From a virus: 61,256 nt of DNA. The stretch is from the IMG/VR virus record IMGVR_UViG_3300045988_077016, positions 1 through 61,256 of that record; one strand, 5' to 3'. The translations under genes were made by a program, and so were the position numbers. The notes beneath the pieces are model-generated. The model made no database searches, was not told the DNA's origin, and worked only from the letters and a program-made list of their open reading frames with translations. Shown here piece after piece: positions 4,976 to 28,467 of the stretch. The stretch's first letter is position 1. Each line of letters starts with the position of its first letter.

Positions 4976-5797
4976 TCACACCTCACCAATATCAATCAGA
5001 GATAAAAAATAAGACAGTACAGCAGATTTTTTATTCAGGTTACGGGTTACCAAATTATGCTGCAATTCAGCCAGTTTGGTTATCGCCTGTGTTAATCCAT
5101 ATAATTCTTCCTCAGTACCATTGTCTATCTTATTAAATGCTTTAAGTAGTATAATGTGCTTAAGTCCAATTAAAACATTGTCAAGCGGATAAACGCCGTT
5201 ATCATCATCTGTATACTTTATATCATTTAATAACGGTATACCTGAATACAACTTATGTGGATTACAGAACAGTGTAAAAAGTGTATTGCAATAATCCGCC
5301 ATTTTCTGTTTATCTACACTCCTTACACGTTCAATATCCCCAGGACATTCACAAAACGCTAAATATTCATCGAACTTTGGTTCGTATTCGCATAACTCAT
5401 TAACAGAGTATTCTTCCATGTGCAATTCAACACATCGACTTCTGAGCGTTTCCAATAACATTGACATAGATGGTGCGGTTAAAATAAAATGTGCATTATT
5501 AGGTGGTTCTTCTGTAATTTTTAATAACGCATTTTTAGCATTTAAGGACATCTTATGTGCATTTGCAAAAATATACGCTGTAGGAATAGTTATTGTGTAC
5601 GCCTGTTTTATAACTTCTCGCACCGAATCAACATCACAGCTGCAATCAATTTTTGTAACACCCATAGCCGAACAAATTTCATTTGCTAAAGTGCGTTTGC
5701 CCCAGCCGTCACGCTGGGTAATTACGATAAATCTTGGGAAACTCTTTACTTTAGACCATTTCTTTATCTGAGATTTTATATTCTCCTGACCAATCAC
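4976..5797 (-). CDS. holB: Clamp-loader delta-prime-like AAA+ subunit (HolB-like)
   Basis: Degenerate P-loop GWGKRTLA, LLKITEEPP and SRC motifs. GTG start overlaps the upstream stop (GTGA). Confidence 0.65.
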   Translation of the reverse strand: MIGQENIKSQIKKWSKVKSFPRFIVITQRDGWGKRTLANEICSAMGVTKIDCSCDVDSVREVIKQAYTITIPTAYIFANAHKMSLNAKNALLKITEEPPNNAHFILTAPSMSMLLETLRSRCVELHMEEYSVNELCEYEPKFDEYLAFCECPGDIERVRSVDKQKMADYCNTLFTLFCNPHKLYSGIPLLNDIKYTDDDNGVYPLDNVLIGLKHIILLKAFNKIDNGTEEELYGLTQAITKLAELQHNLVTRNLNKKSAVLSYFLSLIDIGEV

Positions 5798-6849
5798 TTA
5801 TTATTCCCCCTACAAAATAACATAAAATGACATTCAATTAATTCTTTTACAGCTGTTTCCCATCGTAATTTATTATTTAGCTCAACTACCATATCCAACA
5901 CATCTGCAACATCATTATAATTCAACTGCTCACAATACACTTTAATTTGATTTGTCGGCGGCAATGATGTAAAATCCAAAGAACTAAACAACTTAAATTT
6001 TAAAACATCTAAAATAAAAAACTGGAATTGTTTAAGATACAAACTTAAGTTAATGCCATTAGAATTGAGTTCCTCAACAAATTTTACACTTATAGCATCT
6101 CGATATACTAAAGCATCTAACAGCTGAATTTTATATTTAATATCAGTGTCTCCTAAAACATTAGCAACATCATCAACCGTAATACGATTAGTTAGAGATA
6201 ATATTTTATCGAGCATTGTAATACCATTACGCATACCGCCGTCAGCACATTTAGCAATATATGCCAATGCTTCATCATCGGCAGTGATTTTATCTTTTCT
6301 GCTTCGTGTCTGATTTTCCAAGTCGCATATCTGCTTTAATCTTGCCTGTATGCCCCCAACAGATATACGATTAAAGTTATATCTTTGCACACGGCTTAAT
6401 ATCGTTGCTGGTATCTTTTGCGGGTCTGTTGTACACAGTATAAATATAGCTGTTTTAGGAGGTTCTTCGAGTAGCTTAAGCAATGCTTGCCAAGCGTTAT
6501 TAGAAAATGAGTGAACCTCATCACAAATAAATACTTTATATTCACTGTCAATTGGTTTCTTTTTACTATCTTCTATAATCTGTCTAACATCTTCGACACC
6601 GTTATGTGATGCAGCATCAAGCTCTATTGGTTTGCCCTTTCCTTTATTTATCTCATTTGCAAATATTCTTGCAGTAGTTGTTTTACCGTCCCCAGCCGGG
6701 CCACAAAATAAATAGGCCTGTTTAAAAGTACCGGTATTAAGCTGATTAAGCAATATTTGTTTAATATAATTCTGTTCAACCAATTCATCAAATGTTTTAG
6801 GACGATACTTAACCGCCAGTGTTTGATTTGTAAATTTTTCAATCAACAT
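5794..6849 (-). CDS. dnaX: Clamp-loader ATPase, DnaX (gamma/tau)-like
   Basis: KYRPKTF, Walker A GPAGDGKTT, Walker B CDEVH, LLKLLEEPP, sensor SRVQ. ATG 6849 has a GAGGT RBS; the ORF is open to 6870. Confidence 0.85.
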   Translation of the reverse strand: MLIEKFTNQTLAVKYRPKTFDELVEQNYIKQILLNQLNTGTFKQAYLFCGPAGDGKTTTARIFANEINKGKGKPIELDAASHNGVEDVRQIIEDSKKKPIDSEYKVFICDEVHSFSNNAWQALLKLLEEPPKTAIFILCTTDPQKIPATILSRVQRYNFNRISVGGIQARLKQICDLENQTRSRKDKITADDEALAYIAKCADGGMRNGITMLDKILSLTNRITVDDVANVLGDTDIKYKIQLLDALVYRDAISVKFVEELNSNGINLSLYLKQFQFFILDVLKFKLFSSLDFTSLPPTNQIKVYCEQLNYNDVADVLDMVVELNNKLRWETAVKELIECHFMLFCRGNNK

Positions 6850-6856
6850 TATTACC

Positions 6857-7117
6857 TCATTTCTCAACATTTTTTATAATTCTAACATCATTAGAATCCA
6901 ATTTTATAACATATTCAGTACCATCTATGTAACGTAAATAAGCAGACACCAAATTATAAAATTGATACTGTGCAAAAACAATCTCGTCTTGAGCGTAGTT
7001 GTCTTTGTAGTCAAATTCATGTACATACTTACCAAAGGTTAAGGCGCCAGAATTTATATCATCCAAAAACGACATAAACTCATCTATAACGATTTCATAG
7101 GCACGTATCATCGTCAA
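6857..7117 (-). CDS. Hypothetical protein (86 aa)
   Basis: ORF in operon context. Confidence 0.55.
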   Translation of the reverse strand: MTMIRAYEIVIDEFMSFLDDINSGALTFGKYVHEFDYKDNYAQDEIVFAQYQFYNLVSAYLRYIDGTEYVIKLDSNDVRIIKNVEK

Positions 7118-7350: not shown

Positions 7351-7759
7351 TTATATAATTACCCCTCTCTATTGAATTATCTTTCTGTACTAAATTAAAG
7401 TATCGTTGTTTATAGTCAAATACAAAATCTAAATTGTAAGAACTAAATCCTATATTATACTGATTTTGGCCCACTTCTCGGTACATGATTTCAAAATACG
7501 GTTTATTTTTATTGCCTGTTACAATTATATAAATACTATCAACATTAATTTTCTCACAGTTATCAATGTTTGACACTAAAAGCTCGCAAATATTCATATT
7601 ATCTGCAACAGATTTACTAAATTTGCTCAAATATGTACACCCCCCATCAACCACGCTTATAACTAACCGGTTCAATGCAAATTTCTTTGAAATACGGTAA
7701 TTTTTCGATTTCCTCACAAAATATACGCCATTCCTTGAGTCTATGATTTTTTCTGGCAA
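7334..7759 (-). CDS. Hypothetical protein, start uncertain
   Basis: The ORF overlaps the ThyX-fold gene by 113 nt, so the real start is probably internal (GTG near 7654 or ATG 7597). Confidence 0.45.
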   Translation of the reverse strand: MPEKIIDSRNGVYFVRKSKNYRISKKFALNRLVISVVDGGCTYLSKFSKSVADNMNICELLVSNIDNCEKINVDSIYIIVTGNKNKPYFEIMYREVGQNQYNIGFSSYNLDFVFDYKQRYFNLVQKDNSIERGNYINEPVR

Positions 7760-8342
7760 AATACATATTTTTTAAGACCTGATAATTTAACATCACTGTT
7801 CTTTTTTGATTATAGCTTGACGGTAAAAGCTGTATCATCTGCCACCAGTATCTCTTGTCTTTGGTTTCAAGATACTTTTTTCTATAAGCGTTAAGTACGG
7901 CAACAGTATCAACAAACATTGTGTAAGCAGATGTATCATTCAAGCAAATAACTGCCCCGCAACCATCCAAATCATATTCGGCATTGATTGCATCATCCAT
8001 TAAATGCTCACAACTGAAATCATCCAATGTAAGTTCTTTACTATGTATCTTGTGCATTGTTGAGCAAGAATTGACAACCGTACCAACCTTATAGGTGTCG
8101 AACTCTTTCCACCAGTACAGGGGTGCTGTAATGTCCATTGTTACTACTATCATTCTTAAAAATTTTGAATCGTCATCTCCTGCTGCTGACAACTGTTGCA
8201 TAAGTTTTAAATCATTGTTACCTAAACACCATTTATCACCATCAAAAATTGTGTCGGATTTTTCCCAACTGTTCATTGAGTTTCTCATACCTCTGATAGC
8301 TGGTCTCCAGCCGTAAACGTCAATATCCTCTATTTTAATCAT
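7647..8342 (-). CDS. ThyX-fold (flavin-dependent thymidylate synthase-like) protein with a non-canonical signature
   Basis: By-eye alignment to ThyX. AIRGMRNSMNSWEKSD aligns near the N-terminus. ITAPLYWWKEF aligns to the ThyX AP-F-ARQWFRHR segment. C-terminal ARKNHRLKEWRI aligns to the ThyX R..AQ.EIR segment. The RHRxxSxxxxSxR motif is replaced by DTYKVGTVVNSCSTMH. Confidence 0.55.
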   Translation of the reverse strand: MIKIEDIDVYGWRPAIRGMRNSMNSWEKSDTIFDGDKWCLGNNDLKLMQQLSAAGDDDSKFLRMIVVTMDITAPLYWWKEFDTYKVGTVVNSCSTMHKIHSKELTLDDFSCEHLMDDAINAEYDLDGCGAVICLNDTSAYTMFVDTVAVLNAYRKKYLETKDKRYWWQMIQLLPSSYNQKRTVMLNYQVLKNMYFARKNHRLKEWRIFCEEIEKLPYFKEICIEPVSYKRG

Positions 8343-12685: not shown

Positions 12686-13064
12686 TTCCATCAACTCCCA
12701 TAATTGTACCATCTTTATTAACGTGTAACGCTCTTAAAAAACCGCTGTATATACATAAAAAATCTTCTAAAGACAGCGTAACTTCCCATTCCTCACCGTT
12801 TTTACGATGGAATACAGCTGGATATTCCTCGTCTTTACTATCATCTATTGCCTGCTGTAACGCTTTTGTAAGATTAAGGTTTTCAACTCTTTTACATTCA
12901 ATATGCAAATAAGGCACACCGATAACATCGGCGTCACCGTTAGCACCACAGTACTGCTGACCTCTACGGGTATCAAATCCGTAACGATTTAAAATGTGGG
13001 AGAGTTCAAGCTCTCCCCGTTTACCTTTATTTCGTGAGTTTATCTTTTTTGCCAAATAAATCAC
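12660..13064 (-). CDS. PD-(D/E)xK nuclease-like protein
   Basis: GDADVIGVPYLHIECKRVE (D...ExK) after KGKRGELE. Confidence 0.5.
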   Translation of the reverse strand: MIYLAKKINSRNKGKRGELELSHILNRYGFDTRRGQQYCGANGDADVIGVPYLHIECKRVENLNLTKALQQAIDDSKDEEYPAVFHRKNGEEWEVTLSLEDFLCIYSGFLRALHVNKDGTIMGVDGNGPIRGNG

Positions 13065-13417
13065 CCCTTATTCGTAGAAACATCTTTATCTATCATATGT
13101 ATTTCCGATATAAACGCTTTACGTATAGTATTTGTCAGCTGTGTAGCCTCAGCCACAAGTTCATAGGTCGACTGCATAGGCTTGATTAAAACCGTACACT
13201 TTGTACTTGCATCATCTGCCCTAATTGCTTTCCAATACTCCTGTAAACCCTCTTTGGTATTATTTAACGCCTCAACAACTTCTTCTAATTCTTCGCTTAT
13301 CACACCGATGGCCTCATGACTGGAATTATAATACGGGCCCCATTCGGCACTGCTTCTCTTATATTCGTTGGCAACAATAGTATAGACTTCTCTCATTAAT
13401 TCTTCCACTAAATACAC
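13061..13417 (-). CDS. All-alpha MazG-like NTP pyrophosphohydrolase candidate
   Basis: SHEAIGVISEELEEVVEAL acidic helix pattern. A GTG start at 13417 or 13408. Confidence 0.35.
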   Translation of the reverse strand: MYLVEELMREVYTIVANEYKRSSAEWGPYYNSSHEAIGVISEELEEVVEALNNTKEGLQEYWKAIRADDASTKCTVLIKPMQSTYELVAEATQLTNTIRKAFISEIHMIDKDVSTNKG

Positions 13418-13505
13418 TCCTCATTTAAAATAACGTTTTCTTGGACTGATTTATAATTGATTTACAATTCAATACAACATGTTCGCAGTAGTTAATCATT
13501 TAACA

Positions 13506-14300
13506 TCAACTCTTTCTACACACAGTTTTATATTTGCACCACTTACACTTCTTGGTATCTTCTGGTTTGGGTGGTATTATTAATCGTTCCACGTAGCCCT
13601 CACATTCAAGCAACCTGTTGTAAAAACTCTGTTTCATAGCATCTGTAACCTCAAATAATTCGGGACATTCAAGACTACAGTTATCCCTATTTTCATACAA
13701 AACAAAAGCTTTTGTTAAATCAAGCTCTGCACAATATGCCGTAACCTGATTAAAGTGTTCTTTATCAACAGATTCTTTGCCCGCAGCTTTAAATGATATT
13801 TGATTTTTAAACTCAAACAAATAATATTCACCGGTCGAAATACGCTGAACGATGCCATCACATAAGAACATCAATTTCCAAACATCATCAAACAGCTTTG
13901 TTTCTGCACCGCTTTTACCAACTACTGAAAGTGACTGACATTTACCGGCTTTATGCTTTTGTTCTATGTACTCGGCAACATCAATATATCGCCAATCGTA
14001 ATGCATATCTTCCATATGCTCAAGGACAGTTTGTATAGCAACATGTCTACGACTGCCTGTATCTGCCATACCTATAGAATTATATTCTGTAAAAGTATCG
14101 TCAACATCTGCTTTGGTACGCATAAAATACATCTGTCTAAGGCAATTTAATGAGGAAGGTTTATACCACTCAGACGGTTTATGCGACCTCTCTTTATCGT
14201 ATTTTTCTATGGCCGTCATTACGTCAGTAAGGAAGACTTTATTAAGTGGTCTATTATTCTTAGCTGACGTAATGGCAGAAATTAAGCGTTTTCTACTCAA
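13506..14300 (-). CDS. Cas4/RecB-like PD-(D/E)xK exonuclease with an Fe-S cysteine cluster
   Basis: N-terminal Cys (SLNCLRQ), D...FEFK core, and C-terminal CKWCKYKTVC triad. Confidence 0.7.
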   Translation of the reverse strand: MSRKRLISAITSAKNNRPLNKVFLTDVMTAIEKYDKERSHKPSEWYKPSSLNCLRQMYFMRTKADVDDTFTEYNSIGMADTGSRRHVAIQTVLEHMEDMHYDWRYIDVAEYIEQKHKAGKCQSLSVVGKSGAETKLFDDVWKLMFLCDGIVQRISTGEYYLFEFKNQISFKAAGKESVDKEHFNQVTAYCAELDLTKAFVLYENRDNCSLECPELFEVTDAMKQSFYNRLLECEGYVERLIIPPKPEDTKKCKWCKYKTVCRKS

Positions 14301-15412
14301 TTTGCAGTGGCATTATTAGAAAGTTCCTCATCTTCAAATAATGCAATAACTGATACAATATTACCGCTTGATAACTTAATGGCGTTTTCATCACCGAATG
14401 AAATTGCAACATTATCTGTCGGGATTGATTCTAACTGAGCTTTAAAAAGTGGCACATCTACACAGCATACAAATGGTGTAAAGTTAGTACTATCTGCGTA
14501 TCTAACCAATTCTTCAAGGCTTGATTTCTTACTTTTGATTAAAATACCATCGTTCTGGAAGATAAAATATGCACCGTTTCTGTCGTAAGGCTCAATAAAT
14601 AATGAGAGCCTGTCAAGTACAGCCTGCATAGACAGCTTTGTAACTTTGCAGCTACTTGTAAATGCTTTATCAAGATATGTACACATATCCTCAACAGGAA
14701 ATTCTTCAAGTCCACTATGCTGCCAACCAATAACAGTTAAATCCCCGCAGTAGAATTTTATAGCACCGTCAGCAGTTGTTGTAAAAGAAATATCCTCATT
14801 GTCTGACAAAGACACTAAATCAAACATATTACGGGAAATAAGCATTGGCTGACTGCAAATGTTCATTAAGCTAAAGCATATAGCGTTTTCATCCGATGTA
14901 ATTGCCTTATCGGCTAAATAATACGCACAAAAGCAATCATCATCTGTTGATGTACTTAAAGCTGCTTTATTTACGGCTATAACAGCTTTTACTGTTGAAA
15001 GCTTTAACTTATTCGCACCTGTATCATCATCAATAGCCGGTGAAAATTCGGGGTAAGTAACGAGACCCTCTTCATCAACGGGTAAGGAAATTTTATAAGT
15101 ACCATTACCGGTAACCTTAAGTACATCGCCAATAACTTCAAGTGTAACCTTATCGCAAGTTAATTTAGATACAAGCTTACTAAATATATCAACGGGTACT
15201 ACGCAATAAAATGGCTCTCCTGTATATGCTTCACCAAAGACATTAAACCATGTCATAGTATCTGTCGTTGTTAAACAAATTCTATTATCTGTGCTTTCAT
15301 TCTTTGATATTAACATCATACTTGTTATAGGTAATAATCTATTATTACCCGCCCCCTTGATAGCTTTTGCCACCATCTTTTTAAATTCGTCTGTTTTTAC
15401 TGTAATCTTCAT
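14297..15412 (-). CDS. dnaN: DNA sliding clamp, DnaN (beta)-like
   Basis: 371 aa with a three-domain beta-clamp-like layout. N-terminus is MKITVKTDEFKKMVAKAIKGAG..LLPITSMMLI. Confidence 0.75.
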   Translation of the reverse strand: MKITVKTDEFKKMVAKAIKGAGNNRLLPITSMMLISKNESTDNRICLTTTDTMTWFNVFGEAYTGEPFYCVVPVDIFSKLVSKLTCDKVTLEVIGDVLKVTGNGTYKISLPVDEEGLVTYPEFSPAIDDDTGANKLKLSTVKAVIAVNKAALSTSTDDDCFCAYYLADKAITSDENAICFSLMNICSQPMLISRNMFDLVSLSDNEDISFTTTADGAIKFYCGDLTVIGWQHSGLEEFPVEDMCTYLDKAFTSSCKVTKLSMQAVLDRLSLFIEPYDRNGAYFIFQNDGILIKSKKSSLEELVRYADSTNFTPFVCCVDVPLFKAQLESIPTDNVAISFGDENAIKLSSGNIVSVIALFEDEELSNNATAN

Positions 15413-15416
15413 TTAA

Positions 15417-16286
15417 TTACTCCTTTCTATATTTTTCACTTATAATTTTAGGTACTGCTTTATCCCAATCAATAACATGATGGAAACGCTTATTAGTGAC
15501 ACCCATTGTATACATCTTTACACATGATGGGCAAGCCATAATAGTATAAAATGTTTTTACATATGTGCCGGAATCTAAGTACCCATCTGACATACCACCT
15601 GATAAAGATTGGGTAGCTAACTGGTCAATAGATACATCGGCTACTGTGAAAAATAAATAACCTCGTGAGCCCAAATTAACATATGTTGTAACATCTTCAT
15701 TCATCTTACCCGACCACCTAAATGGTCTATCTGTTCTACAAAAGAAGGCATTCATAGCCTTTCTGGTTAATCTGTCTTTACATACTTTAGAGTTTTTACC
15801 GCCAATAAAATCGCCTATCTGAGATAATGCCACTGTATGTGCATTTGAAGTATCTAAAAACTCCAAAACAATGTCAACAAGTTCATCGAATTTACGAATA
15901 TACTCGGTGCCCAAATGTTCGCCTTGAACGACACGACTTCTAAAATTTGTATAGTCATCGTCAAGCTCTAAAAAATATTTATATCCTAATTTTTTTGCTA
16001 TATCAAAACAAGCACATCGGGCATATAAAATAGCTTTACGGTCATTATCTGGGCCCATAGCATCAACCTTTAATGCCTGCAATAACTTATTAAACATATA
16101 CACATTATCCTCACCGTACAGAGAATAGTATTTGTCTGCATCTGCGTCCTCATTGTCTATGACAAGGATAATTCGACCAGTATATCCAGCCTGTTTCAAA
16201 GCTTTATACGTATAAACATTATCTGCTCTACCGTGTGTCAATATAAACACCACAAAATCTGTCCAATGTAACATACTAATCACCAA
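15417..16286 (-). CDS. Glycosyltransferase-like (GT-A-like, DxD) protein
   Basis: N-terminal beta-alpha FVVFILTHGRADN, ILVIDNEDADA, acidic ELDDDY motif. Overall reminiscent of phage base-glycosyltransferase (TAGT-like) families. Recognition by eye only. Confidence 0.4.
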   Translation of the reverse strand: MVISMLHWTDFVVFILTHGRADNVYTYKALKQAGYTGRIILVIDNEDADADKYYSLYGEDNVYMFNKLLQALKVDAMGPDNDRKAILYARCACFDIAKKLGYKYFLELDDDYTNFRSRVVQGEHLGTEYIRKFDELVDIVLEFLDTSNAHTVALSQIGDFIGGKNSKVCKDRLTRKAMNAFFCRTDRPFRWSGKMNEDVTTYVNLGSRGYLFFTVADVSIDQLATQSLSGGMSDGYLDSGTYVKTFYTIMACPSCVKMYTMGVTNKRFHHVIDWDKAVPKIISEKYRKE

Positions 16287-16289
16287 CTC

Positions 16290-17249
16290 TCAAATAAACT
16301 GATAGTCAGTTAAATTAGACATACAATGATAAACGGCCTGATTTGGCCCGGTTAACCGACATGGTACGTCACACATACTCATATTAGTTACAAACTTGGA
16401 CTTCTTTTCAAGTATATCATCATCCATAATATGACCAACTATTTCATAAGGTTTATGGCAACAATACATAACATTGCCATACTCGTTAACAGCTATCTGT
16501 GACCAATTCGCTATACATTTATCAAAACGCTCACCTAACATTTGCCATTTATAATTAAGCACAACACGTTCATCAATCCTCTGAATAGATTCAATCGCCG
16601 CTATTATTGTTTTTGCACACTCCCGATTTTGTGGGTTCTTTAAATAATACTCACCGTCGGTAGATTCAACAGGACGTATTACAATATAATCAACATCTAA
16701 ATCAGCATTAGCGTTATAAAATTTATACACTTCATCAACTGTATTCGCCAACATTTGTATGCCCAATGACGTTTTAATATCATTCTCTTTCTTCCACTTG
16801 GCATACTCCTGAATATTATAGCGGGTATGCTGATAAAAACGTACACCACGTTTTGCCGCATAGCTATCTTCATCCCAAGCATCTAAAGACACTTTTAAAT
16901 AATTGGGTTTAATGTACTTAAGATTATTAAAATTTGTATTAATACCATAAGCAGTATTGGTACTCTCCAGATAACCTGCGATAGCATCAAATTCAGGATT
17001 AACTGTGGGTTCACCCCCACCAGTTAATATAATACCCAATACACCAAGCTCTTTAAGTCTGTTTACATAAACAACAAAATCCTCATATGATACACATTTT
17101 GTACGCTGGGGTAATTTCCAACGATTGTATGTACAGTAGCCGCACTTATTGTTACAAAAATTAGTTAAAAACATATCTGCGGTAATCGGTCGCCTATCGT
17201 AGAACATTCTGTCAATATACCCCATAATTTTTGAATTACTAATAGCCAA
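16290..17249 (-). CDS. Radical SAM enzyme
   Basis: CNNKCGYC (CxxxCxxC), GGGEPT SAM-binding motif, and extra C-terminal cysteines (MYCCHKP, MCDVPC). Confidence 0.85.
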   Translation of the reverse strand: MAISNSKIMGYIDRMFYDRRPITADMFLTNFCNNKCGYCTYNRWKLPQRTKCVSYEDFVVYVNRLKELGVLGIILTGGGEPTVNPEFDAIAGYLESTNTAYGINTNFNNLKYIKPNYLKVSLDAWDEDSYAAKRGVRFYQHTRYNIQEYAKWKKENDIKTSLGIQMLANTVDEVYKFYNANADLDVDYIVIRPVESTDGEYYLKNPQNRECAKTIIAAIESIQRIDERVVLNYKWQMLGERFDKCIANWSQIAVNEYGNVMYCCHKPYEIVGHIMDDDILEKKSKFVTNMSMCDVPCRLTGPNQAVYHCMSNLTDYQFI

Positions 17250-17264
17250 AACAATTTCGCCCCC

Positions 17265-17648
17265 TCACTCATTCGCAGAATCAATTAACTTTAATATGTC
17301 CTTTGAAAATTTAACATATCCATTGGCAATGGCATCACCAACATCCACTATAACTAAAGCAGACTGTTCCATTAATCGTTGCATATCGACATCTGTATTA
17401 GCATAATAATCGGCTATCTTACCGTAATTAAAAGCCAAATGTCGAGTTGCAGCTAATCTTAAAAACTGCTTCTGTTCTTCAGGTACATTAGACTTATTTA
17501 TTGCGTACAGTAATTCTTTATACTTAGTCTCATCAACAAGTTCGCCAATTTTTGGGCAATCATAATTCGGTAAATATTGAGGTATTTTAATTTTTGATGT
17601 ATAATTTGATTTTATTTCCTGTTTATCTCTCTTAAATGATAATCCCAT
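17265..17648 (-). CDS. Hypothetical protein (127 aa)
   Basis: ORF between the polymerase and the radical SAM gene. Confidence 0.6.
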   Translation of the reverse strand: MGLSFKRDKQEIKSNYTSKIKIPQYLPNYDCPKIGELVDETKYKELLYAINKSNVPEEQKQFLRLAATRHLAFNYGKIADYYANTDVDMQRLMEQSALVIVDVGDAIANGYVKFSKDILKLIDSANE

Positions 17649-17651
17649 ATA

Positions 17652-18563
17652 TTACACCTCCACAGGGTCACCATACCAACATTTTGTAATTTCACTGTCG
17701 CACTTCATTGGTACAGATATTTTATCTTTAGCCGAATCAATCATTATCATAGATAATCTATCTGCAACCTTTTTAGCATTTTCGATGGGACATTCCCCAA
17801 TCACCTCATCATGGACCTGTAAAAGTATCTGAAAACCCCATTCTTTTAATAACTTATCATCATGTACATGAATCATGGCTGTTTTTGACATATCGGCTGA
17901 TGTACCTTGAATAATACTATTAACACACTGTCTACTTGCATCTGTTATCTTAAGTGTATTATCTTTAATCTCAATACCCTGTGCAGCTAACAGTTCCCGT
18001 ATTTTTGATTTCCCCTTAGAGGAAAATGTTTTCTGCAACATTGACGTATATTTATCAACAATAGACTGTGGTACAGTTTCGTCAACAACAGCATCATTAA
18101 AACTCAATGGATTAAAGTTGGGAGAATTACCGTTTACATACTTAAATTCATACGGTTTAAGTAACATATTGGGTAAATGTCTTACCCTACCCCATGCAGT
18201 TGTAACATAACCATGCTCACTTGCAAATTGTTCCGTTGATTTAATAAAATCTTCAACATGAGGGAAAGCATCAAAAAATTTACGTGTCAATTTCTTTGCT
18301 TCATCTACCGATACACCTAATTGCTCTGCTACCGATTTATCACCCCTTGAATACATCAACCCCAAAACAATCGATTTACAAAAACTTCTACGTTCTTTAC
18401 CTTCGGGATTAACCGTACCGTCAGGTCTAAACTCCCTACATTCATCATAGGGCACATCATATACTAATGATGCTACCCAAGAATAAATGTCTTTACCTTC
18501 CGCATAAGCACCAATCAAATTTTCATCACCGCTAATGTGCGCCAATGTTCGTGGTTCTTGCTG
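17652..18563 (-). CDS. polA: DNA polymerase I family, exon 2 (palm/fingers C-terminal part)
   Basis: Begins QQEPRTLAHISGDENL (the continuation of Pol A motif A). Contains RRSFCKSIVLGLMYS (motif B-like) and QVHDE (motif C). Confidence 0.85.
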   Translation of the reverse strand, partial: QQEPRTLAHISGDENLIGAYAEGKDIYSWVASLVYDVPYDECREFRPDGTVNPEGKERRSFCKSIVLGLMYSRGDKSVAEQLGVSVDEAKKLTRKFFDAFPHVEDFIKSTEQFASEHGYVTTAWGRVRHLPNMLLKPYEFKYVNGNSPNFNPLSFNDAVVDETVPQSIVDKYTSMLQKTFSSKGKSKIRELLAAQGIEIKDNTLKITDASRQCVNSIIQGTSADMSKTAMIHVHDDKLLKEWGFQILLQVHDEVIGECPIENAKKVADRLSMIMIDSAKDKISVPMKCDSEITKCWYGDPVEV

Positions 18564-19540
18564 CTAACTGTTATTGTAGTTCGCTACACTACACCCCACT
18601 TTTCAATGGGTGTCGGGCTATATCTTCGTGTATCACGTTTCGACACGCTTGTGCCTACTCTACTTGCTGTCTTACCGTTAATATCGAATAAGAAAGGTTT
18701 TCGATAGCCTCCACACACGATTATTCTTTATACCATTTAGGAAACTCATATATATTATGCTTATATGTGTATTTACCGTATTTAATACTCTGTTTTATCT
18801 TACGCTGATAAACACACTCAGCTAAAGTATCGAATGGGTTTTCAACCGTTTTCCACCAATTATAGCCATCCCTATATGAGTGAAAATGTCGTTCATTACC
18901 AAATTCGTCTACACAAAAACAACCAATCGAACGAGTATCGCCGCTACCGAAATTATGATTACCTTTAGCCTTCTCTGATAGCTTGCGGCGGTGTTCATCT
19001 GAAAATGGGTGTATCTTACGATACTCTCGCATAGACTTCGATATTTTATTACGAACAATCTCTGACCGCATAATATCATCATGCTTCTGTTTGGGCTTCT
19101 CCTCAAACATGATATTATTATCGCCGCCGTAGCTCATATTATAACCGCTACGAACTGAATCATACTTAACAATATAATAAGTTTCTAAATAGTTTAAATC
19201 ATCTAAACTATCGGCTGTATCAATCTGTTCAAACTTAAAATTTTCCACGCCATACTTACGCATAGCATTATACAAATGTCTTGAATTACCATATTTTGCA
19301 CATTTTAAATGCTGCTGTTTACGATGCTCTAATGTGTTTATAGTTTGACCAATATACACCTTACCATTTATTTGATTTATTATCTTATAAATTATCATAA
19401 CATCACCCCAAATAAAGTATAACACAATAATTGAGTTTTGTCTATAAGATAACTTATTAGAATAATCTTGCTCGGTATTACCATATCTAATGACTTAAGT
19501 TTCACCGACTTAGTGACATTTTACTTCTCCCAGTATGTTA
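18564..19540 (-). mobile_element. Group I intron (977 nt) interrupting polA inside motif A
   Basis: Exon 1 ends ...ACTTCTCT. Intron nt 11-18 (GGAGAAGT) pair with it, giving the U-G wobble at the 5' splice site (P1). The intron ends in G (..AGTTAG|CAGCAA). Splicing restores ADFS-QQEPRTLAHISGD. Confidence 0.8.
18721..19398 (-). CDS. GIY-YIG homing endonuclease (intron-encoded)
   Basis: IYKIIN..GKVYIGQT...R...H plus YNMSYGG. ATG 19398 follows a GGGGTGA RBS; the ORF is open to 19425. Confidence 0.8.
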   Translation of the reverse strand: MIIYKIINQINGKVYIGQTINTLEHRKQQHLKCAKYGNSRHLYNAMRKYGVENFKFEQIDTADSLDDLNYLETYYIVKYDSVRSGYNMSYGGDNNIMFEEKPKQKHDDIMRSEIVRNKISKSMREYRKIHPFSDEHRRKLSEKAKGNHNFGSGDTRSIGCFCVDEFGNERHFHSYRDGYNWWKTVENPFDTLAECVYQRKIKQSIKYGKYTYKHNIYEFPKWYKE

Positions 19541-20893
19541 AGAGAAGTCAGCACCAACAAGAACATAACCATCTTTAGCACAGAACATCTTTCGTATTTC
19601 CTTATTATGGGAAGGTATGTTCTGTAAATTCGGGTCCGAGCTTGAAAATCTGCCTGTTCTTGCCCCGTACTGATTAAAAGAACCGTGTAATCTACCTGTA
19701 TTAGGGTTTACCATTTCTGGTAGTTTGTCTATATAAGTCGAAAGTAATTTTACCGTACCTCGATAATCTAATATAGCTTTACTTAACGGATGATTTAATG
19801 CTGTCAATATTTCTTCACCTGTGCCCCTTGGACTTTTCTTATCGGGTGAAGTTAATCCTAAAACATCATATAACAATATAGCTATCTGAGCTGGACTACC
19901 AACATTTATCGGGTCCGACAGTTTATTATCGGGATTAGCTTTCTTGTATGCCTCAATCTGTTTACTGTAGTTATTAATAATACTGTGTACTGTCGCCACC
20001 TGTTCATCGAGTATCTTGTGATACTTTTCAGACAGTTTCTTAGCGTATTCAATATCAAGAGTTATACCGGTATCTTCCATATCTACAACAACATCAATCA
20101 GCGGCATTTCGATATTCATAAATACACTATATTGTCCGGGTAATTTACGTCTATTTAATACTGTCTGCTGATACTCATATAATTCAAACGTCTTTATAGC
20201 ATCACCAGCAGCATATAAATAAGCTACATTAACGGGTACAAGTGTAAAAGAAAGCCCATCAAACAACTTCTCATAAGTATACGCTTCATCGTCTGTTGAA
20301 TTACAATATTTCAAATGCAGCGTTTTCAATGCCGCCGATTCATTTTCATCAATGCACCGGCTTGCCAACATCGTGTCCCAATAAGCATACAGCTTAATAC
20401 CTATATGGTTTCTGATAACACGTATATCAAATTTTGCATTGTGCATTACCCATTTAATGTCCTTTAAATTATTAAAACAGTTATATAGAAATTCTTTTGT
20501 GGGCTGATTGGCCACCCTACTGCCCGTTATATAACTGATATGACCATAAGGTATGTATACAGCTTTTTCACCAGGCGTATACAAACATATACCAGCTAAA
20601 TCGTCTAACATAGGATTTAAACCGCTTGTTTCGGTATCTAATGCAGCTGTACCATTAGACTGTATAAGATTAAAGTAATCTTCTATCTCTGCCTCTGTAC
20701 GTAATACCTTATACTTATCTTTATACTTACCTAATTTAGTATTTACATAAGCACTAAGGGTATTTATTGTATCAAGTACATTCTTACCGCCCTTAACAGT
20801 TGCACCAACTGTTATAAGATTTTTAGATTTATTAATTATATCTGTATCACGTTTCTTATTATCAACTACCGGCACTTTCTTTATTAAACCCAT
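19541..20893 (-). CDS. polA: DNA polymerase I family, exon 1 (3'-5' exonuclease domain and N-terminal polymerase domain)
   Basis: Exo I motif ALDTETSGL. Ends VGADFS, then the first intron codon is TAA. Confidence 0.85.
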
Positions 20894-20897
20894 TTAA

Positions 20898-21596
20898 TCA
20901 ACTCCTACGTGAACGTCTTGAAGTATTATCAACTGTTTCAGCTCTGCTTGGGGACCTCCTCGATGTAACCGGTTCACGATTATTTTCCACCGCAGGTCTA
21001 CGTCTAACATTAGCGGGCTGATTATTATTGTTTGTATCAGTATTAGGGAAAACGGCGTTTTCAATGTAATATTCCATATCCTCAACAGACTTATCTAAAA
21101 CAATCGAGCCAAGTAATTCAGGTTTTTCAATTTCGTTTAAGTCGATAGGTTTTTCGTTGGGGCATGGATATATTTCATATGTTGTCTGTGTGTCACCCGG
21201 TCTACCATGACGTTCTATCTCAAAAACTGTGTTGTAAAGTGGGTAATATCTATTTGCAAGACCTTCAAGTCTTGTAATAAACTGCTTACCTCTTTCCCAA
21301 ATCTTAACCTTACCATCGTCTAAACAATACATAACAACAAATCTTGCAATATTGAGTTTATAACCATCACGACAAAGTGGGCATACATTTAAGTCCTCAC
21401 CGTATTCTCTGGGACAATTCACATAACGCTCTTTGCCATTCAACTGTACTTTGTGAGCAGTAAAAACATCTAACTCACTGCAATCAGCAAACATAAACTG
21501 TACTTTAGCGGTATCACCATCAGTCTTAAGTACAAACCACTCACCACTATTACTGGGTACGTATTTGTCTGCATCATTATTAGCTATTCTTGCCAT
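20898..21596 (-). CDS. Zinc-binding protein, possible ssDNA-binding protein
   Basis: Position between polymerase and primase. CPREYGEDLNVCPLC motif and a basic R/S-rich tail. No firm family assignment. Confidence 0.3.
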   Translation of the reverse strand: MARIANNDADKYVPSNSGEWFVLKTDGDTAKVQFMFADCSELDVFTAHKVQLNGKERYVNCPREYGEDLNVCPLCRDGYKLNIARFVVMYCLDDGKVKIWERGKQFITRLEGLANRYYPLYNTVFEIERHGRPGDTQTTYEIYPCPNEKPIDLNEIEKPELLGSIVLDKSVEDMEYYIENAVFPNTDTNNNNQPANVRRRPAVENNREPVTSRRSPSRAETVDNTSRRSRRS

Positions 21597-27569: not shown

Positions 27570-28151
27570 TTATTTAAGGCCTAAATCATTTTTCGTGTTA
27601 AGTAATGCAGTATCTACTTCATTAAATACTGTGTCCCACAGGTCTTTACGCTGGGTATTAATATCTTCATTAGGGTTTACAGTACGTTTTTCCGAATAAT
27701 CAAACTTATACCAAACGCCGTTAAGCTCTATACTAATACCAGTACCAGCCGAAATCTCAATATTTTCTACGTGACAGTTGCATTTATCTCCACAGCTGCA
27801 CTTTGTTTCTGTTTCAACTTTGTTCTGTACTGATGTGTCAGTGTCATAAGTTTCCGTTTCATGTGTTGTGTCAAGTACAGGTTCGTCTGATTCTGTGGAG
27901 TTTGTTTTCCAAGGCATATCAAGCACTTCTTTAGGCACATCTGCATCAACTGGAGCTTCGTTAGGTTCTTCTACAACATTTGCAGGTGCATCAACCGCAC
28001 CAACAGATTCTTCACCCGGCTCATAGCCACCACATTCTTCGCATGATACTGTAATCTCTTTGTTGTTTTCGTCTAAATCAACAAAATCAATACCATTACA
28101 TTCAGCACAACAAGCATCATTAGGGTCACCAGCATATTTACATTTAAACAT
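27570..28151 (-). CDS. Acidic Cys-cluster protein
   Basis: ATG 28151 behind a CAGGAGGA RBS; the ORF is open to 28193. Motifs CCAEC, CEECG and CSCGDKCNC around an acidic linker. Confidence 0.6.
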   Translation of the reverse strand: MFKCKYAGDPNDACCAECNGIDFVDLDENNKEITVSCEECGGYEPGEESVGAVDAPANVVEEPNEAPVDADVPKEVLDMPWKTNSTESDEPVLDTTHETETYDTDTSVQNKVETETKCSCGDKCNCHVENIEISAGTGISIELNGVWYKFDYSEKRTVNPNEDINTQRKDLWDTVFNEVDTALLNTKNDLGLK

Positions 28152-28170
28152 AATATTATCCTCCTGTAAT

Positions 28171-28467
28171 TTATTTATCAATGTTTTTAACAAGTTCGTC
28201 TACTTGATTTCGGTTAATTAACTCAAGCAGCAGTAATGAATATCCTATAATATCTACAACTGTGTCTGATATACTTTCATTGGTTATTGTAGGATTTTGT
28301 TTGTTTAGTGTTAGATTTTCTAACCTATTGAGTTTATCGGTAATTCTTATAAAGTAGGCATACCAACCGTACTCATTAAATGTACGCTCAAATGCGGCGT
28401 CATAGTCGGTGTTTTTACGCTCAACAAGATTACTGATTGCATTACCAATTGTTTGTATGTTGCCCAT
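28171..28467 (-). CDS. DUF1599-like / MazG-superfamily all-alpha protein
   Basis: KNTDYDAAFERTFNEYGWYAYFIRITDKLNRLENL matches the K..DY...f....G....ir..DK..Rl..L pattern. Confidence 0.45.
   Translation of the reverse strand: MGNIQTIGNAISNLVERKNTDYDAAFERTFNEYGWYAYFIRITDKLNRLENLTLNKQNPTITNESISDTVVDIIGYSLLLLELINRNQVDELVKNIDK

Follow-up and report, generated by a model that had tools for sequence, protein, structure and literature searches.

A candidate DNA-glycosylation module combining a radical SAM enzyme, a TAGT glycosyltransferase and a ParB-derived domain in a phage replication operon

Introduction

Whether phage DNA is open to restriction enzymes, to CRISPR nucleases and to the chemistries used in sequencing depends on its hypermodification, and hypermodification systems have provided tools such as the T4 beta-glucosyltransferase and TET-based epigenetic sequencing. 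To our knowledge, the characterised pathways begin with a hydroxylated pyrimidine made either by a thymidylate-synthase homologue (ThyS) or by an O2-dependent TET/JBP enzyme.

Several described systems are close to the locus presented here. Phage GT-A DNA glycosyltransferases share with the base-J glucosyltransferase the active-site motif R...DDD...EDY/F (Pyle et al., bioRxiv 10.1101/2023.12.21.572611), and the characterised GT-A relatives of TAGT put a sugar on 5hmC in DNA (same reference). For phage thymine dioxygenases, a ParB protein has been described as the activator on dsDNA (O'Toole et al. 2026, PMC13229309). In the literature searched, the sole radical SAM enzyme (rSAM) reported to install a DNA modification is gp53 of phage M6, which resembles spore photoproduct lyase (SPL).

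The window studied here, from a gut phage, is a stretch of 61,256 nucleotides of viral DNA (IMG/VR record IMGVR_UViG_3300045988_077016, positions 1 to 61,256). Three of its genes, co-directional at 17648..15417(-), could constitute one DNA-glycosylation (hypermodification) module, in which an rSAM would tailor the sugar. This reading is tentative, with a probability of about 0.45.

Organisation of the module

The genes of the module and those flanking it are the following:

14297..15412, sliding clamp (PF00712, phrog_947)
15417..16286, minus strand, TAGT glycosyltransferase of 289 aa (PF20691, phrog_842)
16290..17249, minus strand, rSAM enzyme of 319 aa (Pfam Radical_SAM, PF04055)
17265..17648, minus strand, 127-aa ParB C-terminal-domain protein (ORF127), recognised by homology to TAGT-linked ParB-like partners
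17652..18545, C-terminal fragment of PolA (cluster c52; a like arrangement in locus L283 is annotated DNA_pol_A)

An earlier note on this DNA had reported an rSAM and a glycosyltransferase embedded in a replication operon. Both ORFs are present on the minus strand with exact coordinates, and they do lie between the PolA fragment and the sliding clamp, in a row of genes separated by only 3-15 nt. ORF127 starts 3 nt past the PolA stop and is preceded by a GGAGG-type ribosome-binding site; 15 nt separate it from the rSAM gene, 3 nt the rSAM stop from the TAGT start and 4 nt the TAGT gene from the clamp gene. A megablast search with positions 13000..21000 against 50,697 phage records gave no match.

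A Pfam scan of 36 window ORFs found no TET/JBP, thymidylate-synthase-type or C5-methyltransferase domain, which confirms the absence of TET/JBP genes noted earlier. In the same way, no component of the deazaguanine pathways was found among the window ORFs scanned. The Mom-type and amino-acid:DNA-transferase pathways were also considered and rejected, no component gene being present in these ORFs.

Other genes of the window had been linked to possible nucleotide chemistry. Of the two proteins described as MazG/DUF1599-like, the one encoded at 28171..28467 does match DUF1599 (E 8.7e-7), but the one at 13061..13417 belongs to no significant family. The ThyX fold attributed to the product of 7647..8342 found no support in searches: nothing in Pfam, NCBIfam or the sequences of the PDB matches this protein, its only hit is phrog_6721 (function unknown), and the likeness to ThyX is a reading of motifs in which, by inspection of the sequence, the RHR/SxRY residues are replaced. 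Contigs of gut phages very commonly carry the ThyX-like family, and the lytic TAGT group is not represented among the 80 best of them. No specific linkage of the ThyX-like, MazG-like or DUF1599 genes to the rSAM/TAGT module was seen. The ThyX-like protein is thus not supported as a source of hydroxymethyl-dNMP for the module, on account of the missing family match, the replaced RHR/SxRY residues and the lack of a TAGT link.

The glycosyltransferase and its ParB-derived partner

The TAGT ORF matches PF20691, the TET-associated glycosyltransferases, with 130.4 bits (E 1.1e-37; cut-off 27.5) and phrog_842 with an E of 1.4e-64. Its invariant residues are R20, D109-D110-D111 and N196-E197-D198. Because R20, DDD109-111 and NED196-198 fit R...DDD...EDY/F, TAGT can be assigned the motif of the GT-A DNA glycosyltransferases. 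This bears out the earlier description of a GT-A-like protein with an 'ELDDDY' acidic motif, the three aspartates of which are invariant in this PF20691 member. Its nearest relatives are found in two loci (L012, 71%; L013, 68%), both ordered CTD-rSAM-TAGT, CTD being the ParB C-terminal domain. At the level of the family, the TAGT of the window is thus probably a glycosyltransferase acting on DNA.

ORF127, left unassigned by the earlier note, turns out to be the third component of the module, the C-terminal domain of a ParB protein. It shares 40-50% identity over ~115 aa with the C-terminal region of 11 ParB-like partners that precede TAGT. These partners carry PF02195 (ParB_N), and ORF127 aligns only with residues ~120-260 of the ParB_N-containing ones (L001-L010 among them). 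ORF127 itself lacks the ParB_N/Srx N-terminal NTP-binding domain (PF02195), the Pfam scan giving no match at all; it matches phrog_620, 'ParB-like', with an E of 3e-6 at profile positions 152-215 of 217. Of its 997 homologues at E<=1e-5, the 120 listed contain no Pfam domain. Its AF2 model is all-alpha (pLDDT 80.8). As Foldseek brought up nothing in the PDB with an E below 2, the label 'ParB C-terminal' derives solely from homology to the ParB_N-containing partners.

A stand-alone ParB C-terminal domain is also known from Vibrio phage pv27, and in one locus (L005) this domain is fused to TAGT in a protein of 543 aa. Furthermore, an HMM of the ORF127 domain matches 78 of 80 TAGT loci, on viral contigs retrieved by a TAGT search blind to rSAM. 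ORF127 is predicted to be an adaptor or activator of TAGT.

The radical SAM enzyme

The product of 16290..17249 scores 41.8 bits against PF04055 (cut-off 29.5). C32-x3-C36-x2-C39 and the SAM-binding GGE motif (GGGEP77-81) are invariant across sets of 37 and 55 aligned homologues. Beyond this core, five C-terminal cysteines are conserved (C245, C263, C264, C293 and C297): C263-C264 of 'CCHKPY' and C293/C297 of 'CDxPCR' are invariant, and C245 nearly so. The rSAM with a CxxxCxxC motif and extra C-terminal cysteines described earlier is therefore well founded.

SPASM and twitch domains have a C-terminal CX9-15GX4C followed by more Cys ligands, the full SPASM domain including a seven-Cys-type CX2CX5CX3C block. 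No such block was found in the rSAM sequence, which reaches 16.9 bits against SPASM PF13186, under the cut-off of 21.5. Its C245-x12-G258-x4-C263 together with C293-x3-C297 would form a twitch-like site for one cluster. Judged by its sequence, the protein is an rSAM whose C-terminal domain is probably of the twitch type (partial SPASM) and is predicted to hold an auxiliary cluster.

The AF2 model of the enzyme (pLDDT 91.4, pTM 0.89) gave 99 Foldseek matches in the PDB at E<=1e-3, and the best 50 are all rSAM enzymes. DesII, SuiB, SkfB, viperin, BlsE and anSME lead the ranking, in which CteB also appears. DesII, BlsE and viperin span E values from 1e-11 to 1e-8 (DesII, 8hzv, 1e-11; BlsE, 7vob, 3e-9), and the peptide-modifying SuiB, SkfB and anSME stand level with the sugar enzymes. 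TM scores of 0.55-0.64 and identities of 13-18% (0.58-0.64 and 13-15% for DesII and BlsE) correspond to the generic rSAM/twitch fold. The structural comparison suggested in the earlier note thus points to sugar-, nucleotide- and peptide-modifying rSAMs, but at the level of the generic fold. SPL entries were found neither among the 50 best PDB matches of Foldseek nor in a PDB sequence search, which gave marginal matches in the core alone.

An NCBIfam scan of the rSAM and ten distant relatives brought no model past its cut-off, only sub-threshold generic rSAM/SPASM scores. DesII and BlsE are absent among the best 25 of the 35 NCBIfam matches of the window rSAM, and the distant relatives score 33-43 bits against DesII/BlsE-type models, whose cut-offs are 400-450.

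Linkage and distribution

A TAGT gene directly adjoins the rSAM gene on the same strand in 100 of 117 distinct rSAM relatives, which is well past chance level. The two genes overlap in 72 of these 100 pairs, and across all 100 the gap has a median of -4 nt. The linkage still holds in divergent members with 30-40% identity. In the most divergent rSAM loci (L225, L248, L273), the places of TAGT and its ParB are taken by a distantly related GT-A and another ParB. The rSAM is therefore the dedicated, translationally coupled partner of TAGT in more than 100 phage loci, and the TAGTs linked to it fall in clades of their own. An apparent TAGT-rSAM fusion, P0142, lacks CX3CX2C and looks like a deletion or an assembly chimera, so it was rejected as fusion evidence.

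At E<=1e-5 the rSAM has 795 homologues, and those listed, 120 in number, are ~55-71% identical to it. The module is represented by ~800 homologous protein clusters and by more than 200 viral contigs. The genuine genomic members found all come from strictly anaerobic gut Firmicutes (among them Blautia, Lachnospiraceae, Clostridia MAGs and Phascolarctobacterium). A tblastn search of GenBank phages with the rSAM gave a single match, unannotated, in MT835491. The curated families and literature searched hold no description of the rSAM or of its combination with TAGT. The earlier note could not place this gene combination; the glycosyltransferase clearly belongs to PF20691, but the combination is indeed undescribed in that literature.

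Some rSAMs of the family occur elsewhere. At five loci (L146, L165, L177, L207, L211), the gene lies between portal/MuF-like and scaffold/capsid genes, with no ParB or TAGT; in three of them (L177, L207, L211), a GT2-like GT-A enzyme comes after the capsid gene. The family seems limited to phage modules and not to extend to polysaccharide loci, which is unusual for an enzyme tailoring sugar donors.

TAGT modules without radical SAM enzyme

Of the 80 TAGT loci of the rSAM-blind scan, just 14 include an rSAM gene, against 78 with the ParB C-terminal domain. About 80% of the ParB/TAGT modules have neither rSAM nor TET or ThyS. They include the closest syntenic relatives of the window and belong to phages of anaerobes (Porphyromonas) as well as aerobes (Nocardia, Haloarcula). 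For example, Lactobacillus phage phi jlb1, whose genome is complete, encodes ParB-TAGT and no TET, ThyS or nucleotide-metabolism gene. In the syntenic lytic relatives, whose TAGTs are 56-62% identical to that of the window, the slot from PolA to the clamp holds CTD-TAGT alone, 2-5 TAGT paralogues, or a cytidylyltransferase.

Among 98 representatives of neighbour clusters from the 66 rSAM-less TAGT loci, neither Tet_JBP nor Thymidylat_synt is recurrent, both being absent from the 25 commonest Pfam families; this survey excludes recurrent TET/ThyS, and rare single weak Tet_JBP matches may escape it. Sugar-nucleotide genes beside TAGT are few: an SDR NDP-sugar epimerase immediately follows TAGT at three loci (L036, L037, L066) and a cytidylyltransferase is present at two. 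Furthermore, a Polysacc_synt_2-like dehydratase, judged by its sequence alone, is encoded near the rSAM in L248.

Because ~80% of the ParB/TAGT modules lack rSAM, TET and ThyS, the acceptor of TAGT seems to be available without the rSAM. The common two-gene ParB-TAGT module thus raises a problem, as it contains no recognisable acceptor-making enzyme. The acceptor may be either unprecedented or made by an enzyme that is not recognised, for which the rSAM would be the obvious candidate.

Proposed function and alternative explanations

From the established domain identities, conserved motifs, gene linkage and distribution, we infer DNA as the target, a role for the ParB-derived domain and a sugar-tailoring role for the rSAM. 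TAGT, a GT-A enzyme, would move a sugar from a nucleotide-sugar to phage DNA after replication. ORF127 would tether or activate TAGT on duplex DNA, a role suggested by the ParB activator of the phage thymine dioxygenases on dsDNA (PMC13229309). The rSAM would split SAM into a 5'-deoxyadenosyl radical, which, with help from the twitch auxiliary [4Fe-4S] cluster and perhaps from the additional cysteine of the CC pair, would remodel the sugar by oxidation, epimerisation, deoxygenation or decarboxylation. Its target could be the nucleotide-sugar donor or the sugar already on DNA; as a precedent for rSAM tailoring, gp53 of phage M6 reshapes a group that the DNA already bears (PMC8989533). Phages of strict anaerobes would in this way carry a non-standard DNA glycan, presumably evading restriction and other DNA-targeting defences.

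Tailoring is favoured over an acceptor-making role since the rSAM is present in 14 and the ParB C-terminal domain in 78 of the 80 TAGT loci. It is further supported by the sugar epimerases or extra glycosyltransferases that occupy the TAGT-adjacent slot elsewhere, by the lack of (recurrent) TET/ThyS in phi jlb1 and the 98 neighbour representatives, and by the pairing of the rSAM family with a different, GT2-like GT-A where ParB and TAGT are missing. The best fold matches also argue for it, as they are the sugar-modifying DesII and BlsE and the nucleotide-modifying viperin, SPL being absent from the top 50. It is weakened by the small number of sugar-nucleotide genes beside TAGT, by the generic nature of the fold matches, among which peptide-modifying enzymes rank as high, and by the apparent confinement of the family to phage modules.

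Alternatively, the rSAM could be an oxygen-independent substitute for TET that makes the acceptor for TAGT, leading to a base-J-like product in phages of strict anaerobes. It would abstract H from the 5-methyl group of a thymine or 5mC within DNA. Oxidation of the allylic radical by the auxiliary cluster and quenching of the cation by water would then give 5hmU or 5hmC for TAGT to glycosylate; the ParB-derived domain would bring both rSAM and TAGT to DNA. The name of the TAGT family ties it to TET, and the genomic setting is consistent with this route, since the rSAM is found in the same ParB-GT-terminase context as 5mYOX (TET/JBP), whose contigs encode GTs in 31%, ParB in 27% and terminases in 19% of cases (PMC13229309). 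The absence of TET, ThyS and C5-MTase from the window ORFs scanned, the restriction of genuine genomic members to strict anaerobes of the gut, the separate clades of rSAM-linked TAGTs and the ParB link kept even by the most divergent rSAMs go in the same direction. A fully Cys-ligated twitch cluster would also suit a two-electron oxidation, as carried out by anSME, which is in the Foldseek list, and BtrN. However, most ParB/TAGT modules do without rSAM, TET and ThyS, including those of the closest relatives and phi jlb1, so that the idea implied earlier, of an rSAM providing the missing base chemistry, is not the reading with the best support. Moreover, the rSAM also accompanies a different GT in head modules devoid of ParB, it is not SPL-like, unlike both known DNA-acting rSAMs, and no precedent is known for an rSAM that hydroxylates a DNA base with water. 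We hold this route to be unlikely.

It is less probable still that the glycosyltransferase and rSAM put a radically modified sugar on a virion protein or a cell-envelope polymer. The five loci where the rSAM lies amid head genes, three of them with a GT2-like enzyme past the capsid gene, could be understood in this way. In addition, TarP, which transfers GlcNAc to teichoic acid, is reported as the best PDB match for the GT-A enzymes of phages, and 65% of GT-containing contigs have no base-modification partner (bioRxiv 10.1101/2023.12.21.572611). In the window, however, the module is flanked by the genes for DNA polymerase and clamp; TAGT comes almost always with a ParB/Srx protein of DNA-clamp type, to which it is sometimes fused, and has the catalytic motif of DNA-acting GT-A enzymes and the base-J glucosyltransferase. 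DNA as the target is supported by this motif together with PF20691 membership and by the ParB_N fusions to TAGT, as well as by the GT-A relatives that glycosylate 5hmC in DNA and the ParB activation of thymine dioxygenases on dsDNA.

A viperin-like or MoaA-like nucleotide modifier (making, e.g., a modified NTP that would serve in counter-defence or in the takeover of the host), adjacent to TAGT by accident, is very improbable. Viperin structures are among the Foldseek matches, a weak PADLOC pVip match (E 1.6e-7, 29 bits) covers only residues 24-171, the N-terminal core, and GT genes of phages have been reported to have 'annotated viperins' in their vicinity (bioRxiv 10.1101/2023.12.21.572611). 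The NCBIfam model viperin_w_prok, however, gives 20.2 bits for a cut-off of 180, and the near-obligate, overlapping linkage to TAGT (100/117) shows that the adjacency is not incidental. The conserved twitch Cys cluster (CCHKPY, CDxPCR) also argues against it, as no auxiliary cluster is known in viperins. A peptide (RiPP-type) maturase is hardly credible: SuiB, SkfB, CteB and anSME are among the structural matches and PqqE, AlbA and PapB among weak NCBIfam ones, but all NCBIfam scores are far under the family cut-offs, neither a precursor-peptide gene nor a RiPP recognition domain was seen, and the steady partner is a glycosyltransferase within phage DNA or packaging modules.

The hypermodification system proposed in the earlier note is hence credible as a candidate module, given the TAGT family and its dedicated rSAM partner. 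Beside the SPL-like gp53, the rSAM-TAGT module represents a second, unrelated and much more widespread class of rSAM, here tied to a DNA glycosyltransferase, in phages of the anaerobic Firmicutes that dominate the gut of humans and animals. A radically tailored DNA glycan would be new, and so would an anaerobic route to hydroxymethylpyrimidines; each would imply a new DNA chemistry and a new enzyme activity. In either case, the module could also flag gut phages whose DNA metagenomes may under-represent or mis-read.

Comparison with known systems

The phage clusters that combine a C5-MT or T / 5mYOX with a GT-A (Burke 2021, PMC8256090; bioRxiv 10.1101/2023.12.21.572611) have the same kind of glycosyltransferase (PF20691, R...DDD...ED) and common neighbours (ParB, terminase, polymerase, clamp), and both systems are expected to add sugars to DNA after replication. 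However, the present module is devoid of TET/JBP, C5-methyltransferase and ThyS, its constant partner being an rSAM/twitch enzyme. The ParB-dependent thymine dioxygenases (PMC13229309) often share its placement just upstream of the terminase, but here the ParB partner goes with the glycosyltransferase. Moreover, the window keeps only the ParB C-terminal domain, with no NTP-binding domain and no PDB fold match.

Like gp53 of phage M6, the N-alpha-glycinylthymidine isomerase (Lee et al. 2022, PMC8989533), the enzyme described here is a phage rSAM with a probable place in a DNA hypermodification pathway. The former is spore-photoproduct-lyase-like and is associated with an amino-acid:DNA transferase, whereas the latter belongs to a twitch/SPASM-like family and pairs with a glycosyltransferase. 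With DesII, BlsE, viperin and BtrN, it shares a partial TIM barrel and probably a C-terminal twitch-like domain. It differs from them by its own signature (CNNxCxYCTYxRW, CCHKPY, CDxPCR), by identities of 13-18% and NCBIfam scores far under the cut-offs, and by its occurrence in phage DNA-glycosylation modules instead of antibiotic pathways. The substrate of BlsE is a cytosine-linked sugar and that of DesII a TDP-sugar.

Finally, the synthesis of base J in trypanosomatids, by the thymine hydroxylases JBP1/2 and the glucosyltransferase JGT, also involves a TAGT-related GT-A acting on DNA and follows the same two-step logic of an oxidative enzyme and a glycosyltransferase. However, JBP is an O2-dependent Fe/2OG dioxygenase, whereas the sole redox enzyme of the present module is an O2-sensitive rSAM.

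A three-gene module between polymerase and clamp genes

The genome has about 35% GC and is dense in genes, nearly all of its ORFs lying on the minus strand. A radical SAM protein (rSAM) and a glycosyltransferase-like protein had been paired in the earlier note as a candidate DNA hypermodification system. Both ORFs are present, 3 nt apart, score above their Pfam cut-offs and do lie between polymerase and clamp genes:

14297..15412: sliding clamp, flanking the module on the TAGT side
15417..16286, minus strand: TAGT, 289 aa, PF20691 'TET-associated glycosyltransferase' (130.4 bits, cut-off 27.5; phrog_842, E 1e-64)
16290..17249, minus strand: rSAM, 319 aa, Pfam PF04055 (41.8 bits, cut-off 29.5)
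17265..17648, minus strand: CTD protein, 127 aa, beginning 3 nt past the polymerase stop and stopping 15 nt ahead of rSAM
17652..18545, minus strand: C-terminal fragment of a family-A DNA polymerase, flanking the module on the CTD side

The glycosyltransferase (GT) is, judging from its profile score, an unambiguous member of the known family PF20691; its residues R20, D109-D111 (ELDDDY) and N196-E197-D198 are invariant in the homologue alignment. For rSAM, such alignments reveal invariant C32-x3-C36-x2-C39 and GGGEP (77-81) and conserved C-terminal cysteines, C245-x12-G-x4-C263-C264 ('CCHKPY') and C293-x3-C297 ('CDxPCR').

The 127-aa ORF, previously left unassigned, is a ParB C-terminal domain (CTD), 40-50% identical to the last ~115 residues of proteins with a ParB_N domain, one of which precedes TAGT in each of the related loci looked at first. 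Vibrio phage pv27 carries the same CTD as a stand-alone protein, with a TAGT. When IMG/VR was scanned with TAGT as the sole seed, blind to other genes, 78 of 80 loci proved to have this domain beside TAGT (scan-derived sets being best-scoring subsets and not random samples, with ORFs called mechanically). It makes up a protein of ~130 aa or forms the C-terminal end of a ParB_N protein of ~250 aa, and some contigs encode a fusion of it with TAGT (543 aa). AF2 predicts a small, helical domain with pLDDT 80.8, for which a PDB fold search found no relative. Since the CTD adjoins the pair and matches the ParB partners of TAGT, the module in the window comprises three genes: CTD, rSAM and TAGT.

The rSAM family and its partners

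At E<=1e-5, 795 proteins match rSAM; the 120 matches listed have ~310-340 aa and 54-71% identity, save one at 97%. Against 50%-identity representatives, 44 fall below 1e-30, followed by a sharp fall to generic SPASM/twitch enzymes, and an NCBIfam scan gave no model above its threshold. By these sequence comparisons rSAM is a compact, unnamed family, probably of the twitch subgroup of the rSAM superfamily and in no curated family.

Among 117 distinct rSAM sequences, covering all loci fetched via rSAM (genomes, IMG/VR and divergent members), 100 have a TAGT directly beside them on the same strand, upstream in 96 and downstream, as in the window, in 4; the spacing has a median of -4 nt, and overlaps occur in 72 of these 100 pairs. 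Four others are at contig ends, two have a TAGT elsewhere in the locus and 11 loci are devoid of TAGT. Three of the loci without TAGT, namely L225, L248 and L273, have another kind of ParB_N protein together with a distant GT-A ('SYKR...DDD...DYDFSLQ'), and L248 also has a putative Polysacc_synt_2-type NDP-sugar dehydratase, from a look at its sequence; no GT was found near rSAM in loci L101, L144 and L232. In five loci (L146, L165, L177, L207, L211), rSAMs with 52-58% identity and all motifs retained (e.g., L211 5983..6948) lie between the portal/MuF-like minor head protein and scaffold/major capsid genes, and neither TAGT nor ParB occurs in the surrounding 6 kb; in the last three, a ~215-aa GT2-like GT-A comes right after the capsid gene. 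This arrangement could be the mark of capsid glycosylation or of DNA modification at packaging. A GT-A glycosyltransferase is the constant partner of the family, and in nearly all cases it is TAGT.

In a crude neighbour-joining tree, the rSAM-linked TAGTs form their own clades, one of them large and from temperate phages. The triad of temperate phages directly precedes the genes for terminase and portal. The TAGTs of the window and of its relatives L012 and L013 form a second clade, nested among rSAM-less lytic relatives. True rSAM family members (at least 51% identity) were found in reference genomes only in strict gut anaerobes (Blautia, Lachnospiraceae, Clostridia and Eubacteriales MAGs, Muriventricola, Phascolarctobacterium and one 2.9-kb contig binned as Bacteroides).

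The metagenomic protein P0142 (441 aa) was considered as a TAGT-rSAM fusion and rejected: it lacks the CX3CX2C motif, its TAGT part ('...QSLSGG') joining rSAM 'GGEPT' directly, and it is probably a deletion or an assembly chimera and not a functional fusion.

Target and acceptor

Phage GT-A enzymes with an R...DDD...EDY/F motif, structurally related to the base-J glucosyltransferase, add diverse sugars onto 5hmC in DNA (Pyle et al., bioRxiv 10.1101/2023.12.21.572611). The neighbourhoods of TET/JBP-type 5-methylpyrimidine dioxygenases (5mYOX) are rich in GTs, ParB and terminases, and a ParB homologue is a required activator on dsDNA for one phage thymine dioxygenase subclass (O'Toole et al., PMC13229309). 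By analogy with these precedents, DNA would be the most likely target of the module, a non-DNA target being a minor alternative, and an activator-type role, after the ParB of phage dioxygenases, is plausible for the CTD.

The absence of TET/JBP pointed out earlier holds for the 36 window ORFs scanned with Pfam, which also include no ThyA-type hydroxymethylase or C5-methyltransferase. rSAM itself is optional, being present in 14 of the 80 TAGT-seeded loci. The ParB-TAGT pair alone is widespread in cultured temperate phages, bacterial and archaeal, of Lactobacillus (phi jlb1, L282 12746..14321, complete 38-kb genome), E. coli (vB_EcoS-683R6, L010), Nocardia (NTR1, L092), Haloarcula (HHTV-2, L093) and Porphyromonas (phage005b, L094), in most of these just ahead of the terminase genes. 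No recognisable enzyme making a hydroxylated base was found in these five phages, and the complete phi jlb1 genome has no nucleotide-metabolism, dioxygenase or polymerase gene. The RefSeq annotation is 'beta-glucosyl-HMC-alpha-glucosyltransferase'. No recurrent Tet_JBP or thymidylate synthase appeared in rSAM-less loci (Pfam, the 25 commonest families among 98 neighbour-cluster representatives), so that these scans reveal no recognisable source of an acceptor for the TAGT clade, with or without rSAM.

In Lactobacillus phage Ld25A (KJ564036 366..500, search match H36), the start of a 'ParB nuclease' gene matches the last 45 TAGT residues (51% identity), and phrog_31222 covers TAGT residues 208-288 only. 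These sequences suggest that some phages of Lactobacillus delbrueckii contain remnants of TAGT or rearranged forms of it.

Role of the radical SAM protein

The syntenic lytic relatives of the window have in common the gene order PolA - module - clamp - Cas4-like exonuclease - ... - RecA, with TAGTs and CTDs 53-62% identical to those of the window. The PolA-to-clamp slot holds CTD-rSAM-TAGT (with an extra, unassigned 395-aa ORF in L012 and L013), CTD-TAGT by itself, TAGT-CTD-TAGT or CTD-TAGT pairs in duplicate, or as many as five TAGT paralogues plus a cytidylyltransferase. In the last case (L038 3937..8510, L040 5722..8319), the tandem paralogues follow a single CTD gene and the additional gene is cytidylyltransferase-like (PF01467), which suggests a complex DNA glycan built stepwise, possibly containing glycerol- or ribitol-phosphate. 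In temperate loci L036, L037 and L066, an SDR NDP-sugar epimerase follows TAGT, in the slot otherwise held by rSAM. Such variation around an unchanging CTD-TAGT core is the pattern of a cassette that diversifies glycans.

The closest structure to the AF2 model of rSAM (pLDDT 91.4) is DesII (E 1e-11), followed by SuiB, SkfB, viperin, BlsE and anSME, while spore photoproduct lyase (SPL), a DNA-acting type of rSAM, is absent from the top 50. DesII is a TDP-sugar enzyme, BlsE decarboxylates a glucuronate joined to cytosine and the substrate of viperin is CTP. SuiB, SkfB and anSME modify peptides. The C-x12-G-x4-C and C-x3-C motifs indicate a predicted single twitch-type auxiliary cluster, and the adjoining invariant cysteine of the CC pair could, by analogy with rSAM epimerases, which use a cysteine in this way, be a hydrogen-atom donor. 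The one reported precedent for a phage rSAM sculpting a DNA-appended group is the SPL-like gp53 of phage M6 (PMC8989533). Together, the cassette-like slot, the likeness to DesII/BlsE and the gp53 precedent favour a sugar-tailoring role, to which we give a probability of about 0.45: rSAM would remodel the sugar either on its nucleotide-sugar donor or once joined to DNA.

A distinctly less probable role is that of an O2-independent replacement of TET/JBP, in which rSAM would make the acceptor for TAGT by oxidation of the 5-methyl group on T or 5mC. The restriction of the family to anaerobes, the lack in the window of any other enzyme that might do so, the ParB/GT/terminase context common to the rSAM module and 5mYOX, a cluster arrangement that suits two-electron oxidation and the clade specificity of rSAM-linked TAGTs all speak for it. 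However, most of the otherwise very similar modules have no rSAM, even in anaerobes where TET likewise could not work, rSAM also occurs with another GT and without ParB, and its fold is not that of SPL.

Peptide maturation, for all the SuiB/SkfB matches, and a viperin-like role are minor alternatives. rSAM gives weak PADLOC pVip matches (PDLC02903/4, E ~1e-7, 29 bits) over the rSAM core only, so automated defence-finders could mislabel it as an antiviral viperin. Part of the 'annotated viperins (pVip)' near phage GTs, read as immune genes by Pyle et al. (bioRxiv 10.1101/2023.12.21.572611), may be this rSAM family.

Other genes of the window and its relatives

The family-A DNA polymerase (17652..20893, minus strand) is split into an N-terminal (19538..20893) and the C-terminal part, with a free-standing GIY-YIG homing-endonuclease-like ORF (18721..19425) between them; in L283, a 71%-related phage, this gap is taken up by a pair of genes for endonucleases, HNH_3 and GIY-YIG. 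The clamp-loader gene of L283 (19825..20960) contains an intein (Intein_splicing, PT-HINT and Vint matches), that of the window (5794..6870, 358 aa) none.

The protein called ThyX-like in the earlier note (7647..8342, minus strand, 231 aa; phrog_6721, a group without an assigned function) gave no sequence match in Pfam, NCBIfam or PDB, and its ThyX RHR...SxRY residues appear, by eye, replaced (TYK...CSTMH). Its family has at least 600 matches in gut-phage contigs. In L283 the next gene after the homologue encodes a 250-aa protein bearing a FolD C-terminal domain (PF02882); the window has no such protein. The ThyX-like protein may be a folate-linked nucleotide enzyme.

The DUF1599 assignment of 28171..28467 (minus strand, 98 aa) is borne out by PF07659, 'nucleotide modification associated domain 1' (E 8.7e-7). 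This gene overlaps the start of an unassigned 207-aa Cys-rich ORF (27570..28193), and no link to the CTD-rSAM-TAGT module was found.

Comparison with known systems

We infer from sequence all of the chemistry of the module, namely the DNA modification, the base and the substrate of rSAM. The three genes probably form a module for the hypermodification of DNA by glycosylation, to which a new radical enzyme is dedicated. A full-text literature search found no report uniting radical SAM, ParB, glycosyltransferase, phage and DNA modification, the related descriptions concerning other systems. While gp53 of phage M6 is SPL-like, the window rSAM is not, and its CTD partner is alike in logic to the ParB proteins lately reported to activate phage dioxygenases.
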